Shown: positions 14,156 through 18,829 of the stretch, in pieces
Numbering within the stretch: position 1 is the first letter of the stretch
Layout: the number at the start of each line of letters is the position of its first letter
IMG/VR virus record: IMGVR_UViG_3300044976_000024
Coordinates: 1-28,088 of that record
Length of the DNA: 28,088 bases
Reading direction: 5' to 3' (one strand)
DNA from: a virus
Taxonomy: Duplodnaviria; Caudoviricetes
Program-made: the position numbers and the translations under genes
The notes under the pieces: model-generated
What the model was told of the DNA's origin: nothing
Databases searched by the model: none
What the model saw: only the letters and a program-made list of their open reading frames with translations

Positions 14156-14439
14156 TGCTCCAGCTCCCCGGTCAGGTCGGAGAACTCCACGCCGGTCTGC
14201 TTGCGGGTGGCGGGGTGCGAGCCGGGGGAGCGCCGCCCCACCAGCCGGTTGAAGATCATGTTCCGGGCGATGTTGGCCTTGTGCCCCGCGCCCCGTTTGC
14301 CGGACATCGGGGTGTTGGCGATCTCGAACAGGGTGCGGGCGACCAGCTCGTGGACGTGCACCACCAGCACCTCGTCGGTGTCCAGCTCCGGGTGGTCGGC
14401 GACGTGCTGCAGCGCCTGCCGCACGGTGGTGTGCCTCAT
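14152..14439 (-). CDS. Hypothetical protein, 95 aa (small-terminase-like helical motif)
   Basis: ATGA overlap with the terminase stop; ...ARNMIFNRLVGR... Confidence 0.75.
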   Translation of the reverse strand: MRHTTVRQALQHVADHPELDTDEVLVVHVHELVARTLFEIANTPMSGKRGAGHKANIARNMIFNRLVGRRSPGSHPATRKQTGVEFSDLTGELEQ

Positions 14440-15899
14440 GTCCACACCTTCGAGAAGTCCTGCTCGTAGTCCAGCGAAGTGGTGCCCTGGCCGGGCATGT
14501 CAAAAAATTTTCCGCTGAAGAAGTCCAGCTCCTTCACCGCCTGCACCCCGTACCGCAGCGCATCCATCATGTGGCTGTACTTGTCGTGCAGCGGCCGCTC
14601 GGTCCACATCTGCAGCTTGGTGCTGAACTCGTACTTGTAGTTCTCCAGGCACTCCAGCAGCCACTGGCAGTTCTCCTTGTGGATGACTGCGTTGTACAGC
14701 TGCATCCGGGTCTCCTGAATGTCGGTGATGATCGAGTAGTCGCCCGACCTCGAGCCGGGGATCTTCCACACCTTGCCCGACTTGGCGAGCACCGCCACGT
14801 TGGGGAACCGCTGCCGCATCATATCGGCCGGGGTGGTGTTCACCGCCCGCTCGTGGCTGTCGCCGTCCCACGGCAGGATGATGGCGGCCAGCTTGGGGAA
14901 GTAGTGCTTCACCTGCAGGTCGTCCACGTACTCCGGCAGCGCACGGCCGTGGCCCTCGCCGCAGTCGTAGAGGAACAGCTTGTTGTTGATCCACTGGAAC
15001 GAGATCCACGCGGTGGCGTCGGACTGGAAGCCGGAGGCCCCGATGTCGAACACGGTGTACACCGGGTGGCCGGGGTTGAGGTTGAACTCCTGGATCCGGC
15101 CGTCCTTCTCCATCTGCATGTACGCCTCGCCGTAGACGGCGGCGGCGTCCATCTCCTCGAACGAGCAGTAGTACTCCTGCTCGAACATGCGGGTGTTGCC
15201 GAAGCGCTTGAGGTAGGTGGCCTCGATCCGCTCCAGCTCGTCCAGGGTGAGGACGGGCGGCAGCCCCTCGCGCACCATCTGGGCGTTCACGTCGTCGATG
15301 GTGCGGGTGATGATCTGCGCCTCCGGGTTGCCGGAGAGCGACTCCATCAGCTGCCACAGCGGGTTGCGTCGCTTCCCACGAGGAGTGGACACCACCATGA
15401 GCCGCTTGTTCTCCGCCCGGTTCTCCAGGATCGGGGTGAGCCGGGGGATCGGGTCCTCGCGGGTGAACAGCGCCAGCTCGGTGATGGTGTAGTCCTGGTA
15501 GGAGGTGCCGACGCCGGACTTGTCCTGCCCGGACTGGAAGTAGCCCTGCAGCTTCAGCCGGCTGTGGTTGTTGAACCGGCCCTCCATCCAGGTGTCCTTC
15601 CAGGTCACCAGCTCCTCGGGCACGTTGTCCATCAGGGCGCGGATGTAGTCCCCGGAGACCGGGTCAATGTATGTCTTGTCCCACAGGATGTCGCGAACCA
15701 TAGGATTCGACAGGCTAATGTATACCCCCGTCGTCTTGGGCGTACGCAAGCGCGCCTCGCACTGCTCCATCGAGGCGGCGACGTCCTTGCCGGTCTGCCG
15801 GGGCAGCACCGCCAGGCCGTACCGCTTGGTCCTCCACATCTTGTGGAGTTCCTGTTGATAAGGCCGTGGGATGTAGTGCTGCGGGAACCTGTGCTGCAT
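14436..15899 (-). CDS. terL: Terminase large subunit
   Basis: PRPYQ Q-motif, Walker A PRQTGK, motif III VSTPRG, FEQEY, nuclease VFDIG and HMMDALRY. Confidence 0.92.
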   Translation of the reverse strand: MQHRFPQHYIPRPYQQELHKMWRTKRYGLAVLPRQTGKDVAASMEQCEARLRTPKTTGVYISLSNPMVRDILWDKTYIDPVSGDYIRALMDNVPEELVTWKDTWMEGRFNNHSRLKLQGYFQSGQDKSGVGTSYQDYTITELALFTREDPIPRLTPILENRAENKRLMVVSTPRGKRRNPLWQLMESLSGNPEAQIITRTIDDVNAQMVREGLPPVLTLDELERIEATYLKRFGNTRMFEQEYYCSFEEMDAAAVYGEAYMQMEKDGRIQEFNLNPGHPVYTVFDIGASGFQSDATAWISFQWINNKLFLYDCGEGHGRALPEYVDDLQVKHYFPKLAAIILPWDGDSHERAVNTTPADMMRQRFPNVAVLAKSGKVWKIPGSRSGDYSIITDIQETRMQLYNAVIHKENCQWLLECLENYKYEFSTKLQMWTERPLHDKYSHMMDALRYGVQAVKELDFFSGKFFDMPGQGTTSLDYEQDFSKVWT

Positions 15900-15911: not shown

Positions 15912-16766
15912 CTAGCGGGTCCACTTCCTGATGGGCTGGGCACCGTTGGTGCTGCCGGGGCGGTAGTTCTGGGGTTGAGTGCCGTTGGTGCTGCCGGGGC
16001 GGTACGGGGCTGTGGTCGGCCCAGGACGGTTCCCACCAGCGATGGTGCGGGGGTCAGGGCCCGGCGCGGGCTGGATGCCGTTAGTGCTGCCTGGGCGGTA
16101 CGGGGCTGTGGTCGGGCCTGGACGGTTCCCTCCGGCGATGGTGCGGGGGTCAGGGCCTGGTGCAGGCTGGGCGCCGTTGGTCATGCCAGGGCGGTACGGG
16201 ATAGGGCCCTGCCCCGGCTGGGCGCCGTTGGTCATGCCCGGGCGGTAGTTCTGCCCGGTCAGTGCAGGGCGATTCCCACCAGCGATGCTGCCCGGGTTCG
16301 CACCTGATACCGGCTGGGCGCCGGTGGTCTGGCCGGGACGGTACGGGGCGGTGGTCGGTCCAGGACGGTTCCCACCAGCGATGCTGTTCGGGTTAGCACC
16401 CGCTGTCGGCTGCTTGCCGGTGGTCTGGCCAGGACGGTAGTTCTGCGGCTGCGTGCCGGTGGTCTGGCCAGGGCGGTACTCGTTCGAAGGCGGGGTGTTC
16501 TGGCCATTCTGCGCAGCCTGGGTGGGGGTCGGTGCCCCGCCGAGGTCGAGCACCAGCCCGGAGTGGATGAGGTCGGCTGGTCCGGGAGTGCCCTTGCTGC
16601 CCTTGGGCACCTTCAGCTTGCCCATGTTGGTGGCGATGATGCGGAGCATCTCGTCCGCGACCTCCTCCACCGTGGCGGGCGGGGTGTTGGTGCCCCGCTG
16701 CAGGCCGAGCGATCGGTCGGCGATGCTCCAGATGCTGTCCCCGGGTGCAACCGTGTACAGAGCCAT
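15912..16766 (-). CDS. LysM-domain protein with C-terminal Pro/Gly/Thr repeat region
   Basis: YTVAPGDSIWSIA...N...DLIHSGLVL (LysM with insertions); 8 copies of YRPG[QMS]T[TN]G and 4 copies of IAGGNRP. Confidence 0.8.
   Translation of the reverse strand: MALYTVAPGDSIWSIADRSLGLQRGTNTPPATVEEVADEMLRIIATNMGKLKVPKGSKGTPGPADLIHSGLVLDLGGAPTPTQAAQNGQNTPPSNEYRPGQTTGTQPQNYRPGQTTGKQPTAGANPNSIAGGNRPGPTTAPYRPGQTTGAQPVSGANPGSIAGGNRPALTGQNYRPGMTNGAQPGQGPIPYRPGMTNGAQPAPGPDPRTIAGGNRPGPTTAPYRPGSTNGIQPAPGPDPRTIAGGNRPGPTTAPYRPGSTNGTQPQNYRPGSTNGAQPIRKWTR
15935..16482 (-). repeat. Intragenic coding tandem repeats
   Basis: Includes a 96-nt duplication (units starting at 15981 and 16077) that differs mostly at synonymous sites. 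Confidence 0.9.
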
Positions 16767-16767
16767 G

Positions 16768-17238
16768 TCACTTGCCCTTCTTCTTCGAGGATGCGCCTTC
16801 GGCGCTCCGGGCCGTGGCGGTGAAGCTGAAGAGCTTGGTGTTGCTGACCAGCCCGCTGAGCGAGCGCACGTAGGCGTTCACACTGACCGCGGCGGCCGGG
16901 GTGGTGACGCTGATCTGCAGCTGGGTGGCGCTGAGCAGCGTGGCGGTCTTGTCGACCCCGCCCCACACCACCACGTCGCCGGTCTTGAACCCGGTGCCGG
17001 TGAGGGTGACCTGCAGCGCAGGCATCGCCACGTTCGCCACCGCGGTGGCGGGGGTGAAGGTGCTGATCACCGGGGCGGTGCCGCTGATCCAGCGGAACTC
17101 GGTATCGACGGCGGCGGCGTTGCTGGCGTACTTCGCACGCTGCGACGCGACGGCGGCGTTCACCGCCGCTGCGGTTTCGGCCGGGGTCTTCACGTACAGG
17201 TGGTCCGGCGGGTAGTACACCGCTGCGTCGTGGGGCAT
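16768..17238 (-). CDS. IPT/TIG (Ig-like) domain virion protein, 156 aa
   Basis: PVISTFTP...VTLTGTGFKTGDVVVWGG...LSATQL...SN...FSF; TAAGGAG SD before ATG 17238. Confidence 0.8.
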   Translation of the reverse strand: MPHDAAVYYPPDHLYVKTPAETAAAVNAAVASQRAKYASNAAAVDTEFRWISGTAPVISTFTPATAVANVAMPALQVTLTGTGFKTGDVVVWGGVDKTATLLSATQLQISVTTPAAAVSVNAYVRSLSGLVSNTKLFSFTATARSAEGASSKKKGK

Positions 17239-17247
17239 GTCCACTCC

Positions 17248-18282
17248 TTAGATCCTCAGCTGGGGCAACCCTATCGTTCCGAACAGCGTCGAGAAGTCCT
17301 CCTGCTCGCCGGAGGTAGGTGCTTTCGAGGATATGCCTTTCTGCGGCGGCGACGCCTGCTTCTTGGACGCCGCCGGGGCTGCGGCCGGCTTGGGGGCCGA
17401 CTGCTTGCGCAGGCTGTCGATGATGGGCTGCACCGGCACGCTGTAGCCGTGCAGCCTGCCGTCGATGCGCACCTCGTACGCCTGGGCCATCGAGGTGAAG
17501 CGGTCGGCCAGGTCGCGGTCGAAGCCCTTGGTGCCGGGGATCAGGTCCGGGTTGTTGCGGAACAGGTCCACCGAGGCGTGGATGGTCTCCATGAAGCCGC
17601 CCGCGTCCTGCATCCAGGTCGCGGCCCGGCCCTCGATCTCCTGGGTGAGCAGCTCCCGGATCGCCTCCTGCCACTCGCGGGCGTCGTTGGAGTCCCGCAG
17701 CGTCTCCATGCCTTCGCCCTGCAGCGAGGGCACCTGCTTGCCCACCAGCATGCGGGGGTGCACCTCGAGCGCCTCGAAGTACTTGGCGTGCTCCTCGCGG
17801 GCGGAATCGTAGGCGGCGGAGCGGTAGCCGTTGGAGAGGTTCTCCTCGATCCTGGTGCTCAGCGCACCGATCTCGGGAGCGACTGCTGCGGCCTCGGCAC
17901 TCCAAGCTGCTGGATCGCCGAGGGCTGCAGGCTGTTCAGCACCTCCGCCAGCATCTCCTTCTGCTCCTTCAGCTCGTCCTGCTGCGCCAGCAGCCGGGTC
18001 GCCAGATGCCCCGTCCGGTCCCTCAGCAGCTCGTCCTGCCGCTGCAGCGCCTGGGACAGCTGCCCCATCGCCTCCAGCAGCACCGCCTTGGTCTGCCGCA
18101 CCTGCGCCTGGTGCACCTCCAGGATCCGGCGCTCCAGTTCCACCCGGTGATGCAGCAGCACTTCCGCCTGCCGCATCCTCTCCTGCGCCTTCCGGTCCGT
18201 CGGGCGCCAGCGCGTCCATGAGCGCACCGAACGCAACGTCCCCCTGAGAGGGGAGGCTGATGGCTTCCTGATCATCAGGCAC
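17248..18282 (-). CDS. Scaffold-like protein, 344 aa (acidic low-complexity N-terminus)
   Basis: GGGAGG SD and GTG start; Ala/Gly/acidic N-terminus, helical core, Pro/Lys linker and short C-terminal helix as in scaffolding proteins; the function is inferred. Confidence 0.65.
   Translation of the reverse strand: MPDDQEAISLPSQGDVAFGALMDALAPDGPEGAGEDAAGGSAAASPGGTGAPDPGGAPGAGAADQGGAAGGDGAAVPGAAAAGRAAEGPDGASGDPAAGAAGRAEGAEGDAGGGAEQPAALGDPAAWSAEAAAVAPEIGALSTRIEENLSNGYRSAAYDSAREEHAKYFEALEVHPRMLVGKQVPSLQGEGMETLRDSNDAREWQEAIRELLTQEIEGRAATWMQDAGGFMETIHASVDLFRNNPDLIPGTKGFDRDLADRFTSMAQAYEVRIDGRLHGYSVPVQPIIDSLRKQSAPKPAAAPAASKKQASPPQKGISSKAPTSGEQEDFSTLFGTIGLPQLRI
17859..18275 (-). CDS. Overprinted coiled-coil ORF nested in the scaffold-like gene, 138 aa
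   Basis: ATG overlaps the upstream stop (TGATG); 37 of 40 codons from 18176 end in G/C versus 11 of 40 in the host frame; L/Q/E heptad-like sequence. Confidence 0.65.
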   Translation of the reverse strand: MIRKPSASPLRGTLRSVRSWTRWRPTDRKAQERMRQAEVLLHHRVELERRILEVHQAQVRQTKAVLLEAMGQLSQALQRQDELLRDRTGHLATRLLAQQDELKEQKEMLAEVLNSLQPSAIQQLGVPRPQQSLPRSVR

Positions 18283-18829
18283 CCTCAGCCTCCCTGCGGG
18301 TCTCTTCCAGCACGTCCACCAGCATCTGCCGGTGCTCGTCGGTGAACTCGAACTTGATCTGGTCCAGCAGGCCCAGGATGCCCTCCTCGCCGAAGAACAT
18401 CCGGTGCACCTCGGCCATCGCCGCGATCTCGATCCCGGCGGCGGGTGAGTCGGGGTCCCACTCCAGCTCCCAGAGCAGGAAGGTGGACTGCCACAGGATC
18501 ATGATGTTGAGGTAGCGCAGCGAGTTGGTCTCGCGGTCCTCTTCGGCGGAGGCCGGGTGCAGGCACTCCGGCTCCTGCTCGATCTCCTCCTCCAGGATCG
18601 CCGCCAGGTCCAGCACCTTGGCGAAGTACACCGCCCGGAAGGCGGTCATGTCGGCGAACCCGACGCCCTGGTAGGTGGAGACGATCCGGTTGGCCCACTG
18701 CGGCGTGATGCGGGCCTCGGACTCCCCGACGGCAGGGGCGAGCACGCCGCGCCACAGCTCCAGGATGGTGTGGTACGGCGCGGCGGCGGCGTCGAGCAGC
18801 TCCTCGACGGCGGTGTCCTTCTCAGTCAT
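18275..18829 (-). CDS. Hypothetical acidic protein, 184 aa
   Basis: ATGA-coupled start at 18829 (MTEKDTAVEE...); strong GC3. Confidence 0.85.
   Translation of the reverse strand: MTEKDTAVEELLDAAAAPYHTILELWRGVLAPAVGESEARITPQWANRIVSTYQGVGFADMTAFRAVYFAKVLDLAAILEEEIEQEPECLHPASAEEDRETNSLRYLNIMILWQSTFLLWELEWDPDSPAAGIEIAAMAEVHRMFFGEEGILGLLDQIKFEFTDEHRQMLVDVLEETRREAEGA

Follow-up and report, generated by a model that had tools for sequence, protein, structure and literature searches.

A probable gene nested in the +1 frame of a conserved pre-terminase gene of EK/EM-type actinobacterial podophages

Does a stretch of a tailed phage genome encode two proteins in two overlapping frames of the same strand, or is one of the two frames just the shadow of the other? 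The question is raised by a locus in a viral DNA of 28,088 nucleotides (the window; positions 1 to 28,088 of the IMG/VR record IMGVR_UViG_3300044976_000024), where an ORF originally described as a coiled-coil gene lies in the +1 frame of a longer, scaffold-like gene. The window derives from an actinobacterial podophage of the EK/EM type, a group described in the accessible part of PMC7302621: a tblastn search with the C-terminal domain (C-domain) of the outer protein matched 58 phage records, 57 from Microbacterium and one from Arthrobacter. CheckV estimates the completeness of the virus record at 52%. Homologues of the outer gene include MissAmericana gp48, Burro gp45 and Akoni gp50, with 37-44% identity over the C-domain, and the family, which is confined, comprises 147 representatives at 50% identity; the gene is found shortly before the terminase in the window and in all the 11 GenBank records that were fetched. 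The genes concerned are the following:

18275..18829, minus strand: upstream gene, 184 aa, acidic, with no assigned function; its TGA (18277-18275) and the inner ATG overlap as TGATG
17248..18282, minus strand: outer gene, 344 aa, GTG start at 18282, with tblastn matches to the 58 phage records
17859..18275, minus strand: inner +1 ORF, 138 aa, ATG start, nested in the disordered linker of the outer gene
17248..17862, minus strand: C-domain and tail of the outer gene, singly coded, GC3 0.95
14436..15899, minus strand: terminase large subunit (PHROG 2, E 6e-18), downstream context

The inner ORF starts with a basic N-terminus, followed by SWTRWR, a long helix rich in Leu, Gln and Glu, the sequence EVLNSLQP and a short Pro/Ser tail. 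The upstream 184-aa gene has no Pfam or PHROG match. In the window, a 158-aa gene with an IPT/TIG domain (16768-17244, minus; Pfam E 8e-5, above the curated cut-off) is inserted between the outer gene and the terminase, and MissAmericana has no gene at that place; just 5′ of the terminase, a 284-aa gene (15912-16766, minus; no Pfam match) has an N-terminus that is LysM-like by eye, followed by Pro/Gly-rich tandem repeats of 96 nt. In another genome (G004:C1:35153-36664, minus) the terminase match is split in two pieces, residues 5-408 and 399-486, contained in one open frame of 513 aa, which suggests a short in-frame insertion. A plus-strand ORF at 17831-18247 (GC3 0.45) was set aside as an antisense shadow.

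The geometry first described for the locus was confirmed: the inner ORF (18275-17859) is fully nested in the outer one (18282-17248) and the two starts are 7 nt apart. Over 18176-18057, GC3 is 37/40 in the inner frame and 12/41 in the outer one (the earlier count for the latter was 11/40). GC3 is 0.43 in outer residues 1-141, 0.95 in residues 142-344 and 0.91 in the inner ORF; seven neighbouring genes have values of 0.94-0.98 and a repeat-rich one of 0.82. In addition, the outer frame of the window contains no ATG, GTG or TTG between codons 22 and 174, in agreement with the original prediction, which had found no other start near its C-terminal part. When the outer protein is recoded, the +1 frame remains open with a probability of 0.14, and recoding of the inner protein leaves the outer frame open with a probability of 0.50; since shadow extensions with inverted GC3 are also common in these GC-rich genomes, the open frames of the window alone are weak evidence and the case for two genes rests on the family.

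The homologous loci came from two sources: 11 of the 58 matching GenBank entries, and four scans in which C-domain patterns served as seeds. Under the combined rule 274 loci were examined, of which 99 were duplicates and 29 were cut by contig ends, leaving 146 distinct complete loci. All 146 have an open +1 frame of 100 codons or more, and in 141 it extends from position +4 of the outer start to the inner stop; no relative with one frame only was found among the loci examined. Both frames thus stay open throughout the homologous loci, as was to be checked for the dual coding that had been proposed. In the first set of 70 distinct loci the +1 frame is open over 101-160 codons, and a null was built by recoding one of the two proteins with the codon usage of each locus: an open +1 frame is expected in 20.4 of the 70 loci (29%) when the outer protein is recoded, and an open outer frame in 12.5 when the inner protein is recoded, versus 70/70 observed. 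A held-out metagenome set (80 loci, 36 of them dropped as duplicate, truncated or devoid of anchors) gave 44/44 open frames, and a third set (102 loci, with 72 duplicates and 7 truncated) gave 23/23. These counts overstate independence because the loci are related; the 141 C-domain rows form 114 clusters at 90% identity, 57 at 70% and 14 at 60%. The genomes that keep the nested pair span 47-68% GC and, at the lower end, the locus L193 (47% GC) has both frames open at P 0.04 and 0.003. The position of the inner stop varies from -38 to +37 nt around the start of the C-domain. Leu and Val codons of the xTG/xTA type preceding an A are absent from the overlap (0/89) versus 176/362 in the C-domain, a comparison that is partly circular because +1 stops bounded the overlap; the valid test is the recoding null.

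These figures bear directly on the possibility that the outer gene alone is translated, the +1 ORF being a by-product of a low-GC3 linker of Ala, Gly, Pro, Asp and Glu that is kept for translation speed or for RNA or DNA structure. Such a linker automatically yields a high +1 GC3 and few +1 stops, as reflected by the value of 0.14 in the window; furthermore, GC3 of Ala codons is lower (0.58) also in the singly coded C-terminal tail, and the inner sequence is fast-evolving. However, open +1 frames in 146/146 loci versus 29% expected, together with an inner start that is conserved and compensated when displaced, with helix substitutions favouring the inner frame and with an inner motif kept through silent inner changes in L193 (all detailed below), make this explanation very improbable.

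The region where the two frames begin contains these signals:

18289..18295, minus strand: Shine-Dalgarno (SD)-like AGGGAGG, 6 nt before the outer GTG
18273..18286, minus strand: start cassette with a second SD-like word (GAGGG), the outer GTG at 18282, the upstream stop and the inner ATG at 18275

As initially noted, in the window the outer frame has an SD sequence and GTG start of its own, and the inner ATG would be coupled to the stop of the preceding gene, whose TGA overlaps it. The 7-nt spacing of the two starts is true of the window, but it is a minority form in the family, where the usual cassette is RTGA-GTG with the inner GTG at +4. Among the 146 loci, 121 have the inner start at +4, 19 at +7 and one at +10, and five have none (three from the Burro lineage and two for which no outer start was picked). 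A start at +7 is present in 19/23 loci that lack the one at +4, versus 14/121 of those that have it, and the loci using +7 are scattered over about nine places in a quick tree read by eye, the change tally of the tree program itself being set aside since it skips 119 unlabelled rows; an ATG at +7 occurs in 10/11 GenBank loci, but it is not the family rule. The +4 GTG arises from an AGT second codon, the ratio of AGT to AGC at this position being 119 : 6; it is 0 : 10 in 37 coupled starts from five relatives and the window, and 3 : 10 in 70 annotated genes of two phages, which served as controls. A +4 or +7 start occurs in 0/37 and 1/70 of these controls, and in none of the 107 is it accompanied by a long open frame. 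SD-like words precede the outer start in 56/70 loci and the inner start in 46/70, and the upstream stop lies at +5, over the inner start, in 38/70, at +1, over the outer start, in 21, at -2 in 7 and at other positions in 4. For Escherichia coli, the accessible text of PMC9841429 demonstrates that RUG/RUGA sites lying close together support dual initiation as well as termination-reinitiation.

In the Burro lineage (L271, L273 and L275) a +1 stop is found 13 nt past the outer start and there is no +4 or +7 start; here, and also in L283, the inner gene would begin about 10 codons later, at an ATG or GTG. Arete and Araxxi, which are sister to this lineage, keep the +4/+7 starts.

Selection on the two frames was examined through substitution rates in 26 disjoint close pairs and through amino acid change ratios in 23 pairs with an anchor. 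Two short elements are referred to:

18208..18240, minus strand: outer N-terminal amphipathic motif (D15, F18, L21, D23, L25), under outer-frame constraint, of which the inner SW is a shadow
17922..17945, minus strand: inner EVLNSLQP motif, under inner-frame constraint

The rates at outer codon positions 1, 2 and 3 are 0.15, 0.11 and 0.29 in the C-domain and 0.15, 0.12 and 0.26 in the first 32 codons; in the remaining overlap they become 0.23, 0.23 and 0.28, with position 3 still the fastest, and 66 of the 72 indels of the overlap are multiples of three. The ratio of inner to outer amino acid change is 1.72 in the C-domain and 1.65 in the outer motif, and along the overlap after the motif it takes values of 0.87, 0.94, 1.03 and 1.11; in the first two quarters of the overlap the inner frame undergoes the milder changes, and the last half of the overlap (1.03-1.11) gives no inner advantage. 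The substitution pattern indicates that constraint alternates, the outer frame governing the N-terminal motif and the inner frame the helix. In the inner motif, L193 reads EILNSLQP in place of EVLNSLQP, conserved by silent inner changes that include a switch of Ser codon family, and the outer reading of the same site passes from GGAEQPAA in the window to GDSEFASA, with 4/8 residues kept. A tally of this motif over 44 loci, chosen by pattern, serves only as an illustration. Conservation of the inner protein is low overall, with a mean column identity of 21%.

Composition also departs from that of a plain shadow in both frames. Leu, Gln and Glu account for 17%, 10% and 8.7% of the inner residues, versus 7.7, 4.4 and 1.9% in the null, and the outer linker contains 0.9% Arg and 0.3% His versus 7.1 and 2.7% expected. 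The linker had been regarded as the shadow of the inner gene; this depletion, and an N-terminal motif driven by the outer frame, indicate that it is not merely that. Since starts near the C-domain are also scarce (any start in only 26/70 loci), the linker is likely to be translated and selected. The same data weigh upon a reading in which two genes follow each other in series and the frame of the outer N-terminal part, a shadow, is not translated. This is how Araxxi is annotated, with gp45 in the +1 frame and gp46 as the C-domain; gene callers often choose the inner frame, the inner GC3 is genome-like, and shadow extensions are common in these genomes. On the other hand, the outer frame is open in 70/70 loci versus 12.5 expected, the window has no start near the C-domain, changes in the outer motif are biased towards silent ones in the outer frame, the linker is Arg-poor, and the outer RTG is conserved with its SD-like word in 56/70 loci; serial genes thus have a very slight chance of being the correct reading.

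A programmed frameshift, which the original prediction had put forward as the alternative to true dual coding, would fuse the outer N-terminal motif to the +1 helix, or the helix to the C-domain. Several features could accommodate it: both frames are open alongside each other over the whole linker, with the inner stop near the C-domain start; constraint is on the outer frame in the first 30-40 codons and then on the inner one, as a +1 shift after the motif would likewise predict; and the Burro lineage lacks the +4/+7 start. It does not explain, however, why the +1 start is conserved at +4 and compensated at +7, nor why +1 stops are avoided upstream of and within the outer motif, which is needless for a later shift. 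In addition, when canonical signals were searched, an X XXY YYZ heptamer was found in 1/70 overlaps, and homopolymer runs near the inner stop occur in 9/70 loci. With each frame provided with a conserved start of its own, a frameshift is quite improbable. A database protein, P0114, switches from the outer to the inner and back to the outer reading, and it is also fused to the upstream gene; it is likely a chimera due to sequencing errors and does not speak for a frameshift of biological origin.

The window is a metagenomic record and the interval 17860-17900, pointed out earlier as the possible place of a 1-nt assembly error, is fully covered only by the sequencing run X1, which may be the source of the window itself; an indel could then have split one gene into two apparent frames. 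Every listed contig piece is nonetheless gap-free, including those from X2 and X3 that cover 17919-18211, 17924-18074 and 18162-18312, and the architecture is common to 11/11 cultured phages fetched from GenBank. The relatives refute this reading, the probability of which is practically negligible.

Dual coding from separate starts, producing an outer protein of 344 aa and an inner protein of 138 aa, is therefore the preferred reading; given open frames in 146/146 loci, a conserved inner start and selection on both frames, its probability can be put at about 0.85.

As regards the two products, the model of the outer protein (pLDDT 73) shows a helix at residues 14-25, disorder up to about residue 120, a confident helical domain at residues 131-295 and a tail helix at residues 331-337, the linker being acidic, Ala/Gly-containing and disordered. 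In sequence, the tail helix (residues 328-338, 17301-17269) resembles the N-terminal motif (18240-18208). Both terminal helices, which sit on long disordered arms, follow a D-x-F-x-x-L-hydrophobic pattern and are possibly two copies of one binding motif. The inner protein is modelled as one long helix (residues 9-116, pLDDT 90), and in the window its residues 35-116 display a hydrophobic periodicity of 100 degrees that is equalled by 2 of 1000 shuffles. The convincing coiled coil of the original prediction is thus sustained for the window as a helix with significant periodicity, but only 3/70 family members show this periodicity in the 42 residues that follow the Trp motif, so that a coiled coil is not claimed family-wide. 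The median net charge over the first 45 residues is -9 for the outer and +11 for the inner protein; the basic character of the latter is partly due to Glu/Asp codons being read in +1. A transmembrane segment is absent from the inner protein in 70/70 loci (maximum 19-residue hydropathy 1.39, with 0/70 above 1.6).

Searches of both proteins and both alignments against PHROG, Pfam and PDB sequences gave nothing significant, and Foldseek with the outer model gave no PDB match at E<=0.001. In BFVD, the outer structure had significant matches only with the Burro and Araxxi homologues; four of the 50 rows were named scaffolding protein, at a non-significant E of 0.66-2.4. The VIA fold search of the outer protein returned a best Z of 7.5, with generic helices, and the ESM Atlas contained unnamed clusters only; the nearest named one for the inner protein, Phage_GPO (0.75), was rejected as being at chance level. 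The inner protein had no tblastn match in GenBank phages, though the homologous frame is present there; its profile retrieved 60 proteins called in other assemblies, none informatively named, and comparison of the inner and outer profiles revealed no likeness.

Phage scaffolds combine acidic disordered arms, a helical core and a short helix that binds the coat protein, and the modelled architecture of the outer protein would suit such a role. For a small terminase subunit, the position before the large subunit fits, no family match was found and the inner model is a single helix. MissAmericana and KingKamren, the two genomes inspected, carry no annotation of a scaffold or of a small terminase; because of these unassigned functions, the position of the pair and the coupling of its starts, a role of the inner and outer proteins in head assembly or DNA packaging can be tentatively proposed, at somewhat less than even odds.

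From the observed open frames, start conservation, and codon and substitution patterns, we infer how the locus may be translated. Ribosomes would initiate at both starts, so that the outer protein of 344 aa and the helical inner protein of 138 aa would come from a single message: those finishing the upstream gene, or loaded by the SD sequence, would restart on the outer RTG or, 4 or 7 nt further on, at the +1 start, and this would set the proportion of the two products with no need for a frameshift. The inner helical protein is predicted to act together with the outer protein in head assembly or packaging. The overlap would be workable because the constraints alternate; there the outer protein would need just a short helix followed by a disordered linker that is long, acidic and free of Arg, and the free third positions of the linker would supply the Leu, Gln and Glu of the inner protein. 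A more daring proposal, at present unlikely, is that the tandem RUGA-GUG cassette, which brings three frames together within 10 nt, may serve the whole podophage family as a fixed-ratio switch for two head-assembly proteins, a scaffold with a long, acidic, disordered arm and, encoded within this arm, a basic helical partner that would be the missing small terminase or another scaffold, with the +1 shift giving them complementary charges.

Among the 11 GenBank records fetched, 10 call the outer frame only and none calls the two genes as a nested pair. In Araxxi (L006:1735-2690) gp45 covers 86 aa of the inner frame and gp46 is the C-domain; the record of Arete, near-identical to it, differs. A description of the overlap was not found in the literature searched, the scope of which did not extend to PhagesDB or Phamerator notes, supplements and subscription papers; there is no mention of it in the accessible portions of PMC13069448, PMC13460095 and PMC8227390. 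As the pair is missing or split in the records inspected, one gene of the morphogenesis region is likely absent from the annotation of dozens of cultured EK/EM phages, and the two proteins are candidates for the scaffold or small terminase unannotated in the two genomes inspected. Moreover, the conserved +4/+7 cassette lends itself naturally to tests of dual initiation and of termination-reinitiation, and cultured phages and the host Microbacterium foliorum exist, which makes each step testable.

Among tailed dsDNA phages, the spanins are the best-known instance of long genes fully nested on the same strand, as stated in the accessible part of PMC6139136, and the pair shares several traits with lambda Rz/Rz1 as portrayed there: a whole gene is embedded in the +1 frame in a tailed phage, it is usually missed by gene callers, and one partner is of low complexity in the shared stretch. 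Unlike those spanins, it has neither a transmembrane segment nor a lipoprotein Cys, and its host is likely Gram-positive. The outer N-terminus is acidic, modelled as a short helix followed by disorder, and carries no transmembrane segment, and the inner protein of the window has no Cys. The nested pair also lies outside the lysis cassette, the endolysin and membrane-protein genes being about 7 kb upstream in MissAmericana and KingKamren, and the helical partner is here the inner one. Position differs as well, since in the same portion of PMC6139136 most embedded o-spanins start about 0.4-0.5 along the outer gene, whereas the inner gene starts here 4-7 nt after the outer start. What the locus would add is a nested pair kept across 57 sequence clusters (70% identity) outside the lysis cassette.

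Gene E of phiX174, nested in the external scaffolding gene D (PMC4825663, in the part available), offers a likeness in that the inner gene of the podophages also lies within a possible scaffold gene. However, the same text gives E as a membrane lysis protein, and a hydrophobic segment of 19 residues is lacking from the inner protein in 70/70 loci; D is an external scaffold, and the outer protein is only a scaffold candidate. The closest parallel for the starts is provided by the AUGUG/GUGUG and RUGA sites of E. coli, where, in the section of PMC9841429 consulted, the starts of two frames also fall in one ribosome binding site with an overlapping UGA; the spacing is 2 nt there versus 4 or 7 nt here, and in the phage family both frames are long and kept by selection, initiation of this kind in Actinobacteria being presumed. 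Judged from the sequences compared, the inner ORF appears to be a real, family-wide nested gene, of a known kind of architecture and with a tandem start cassette.
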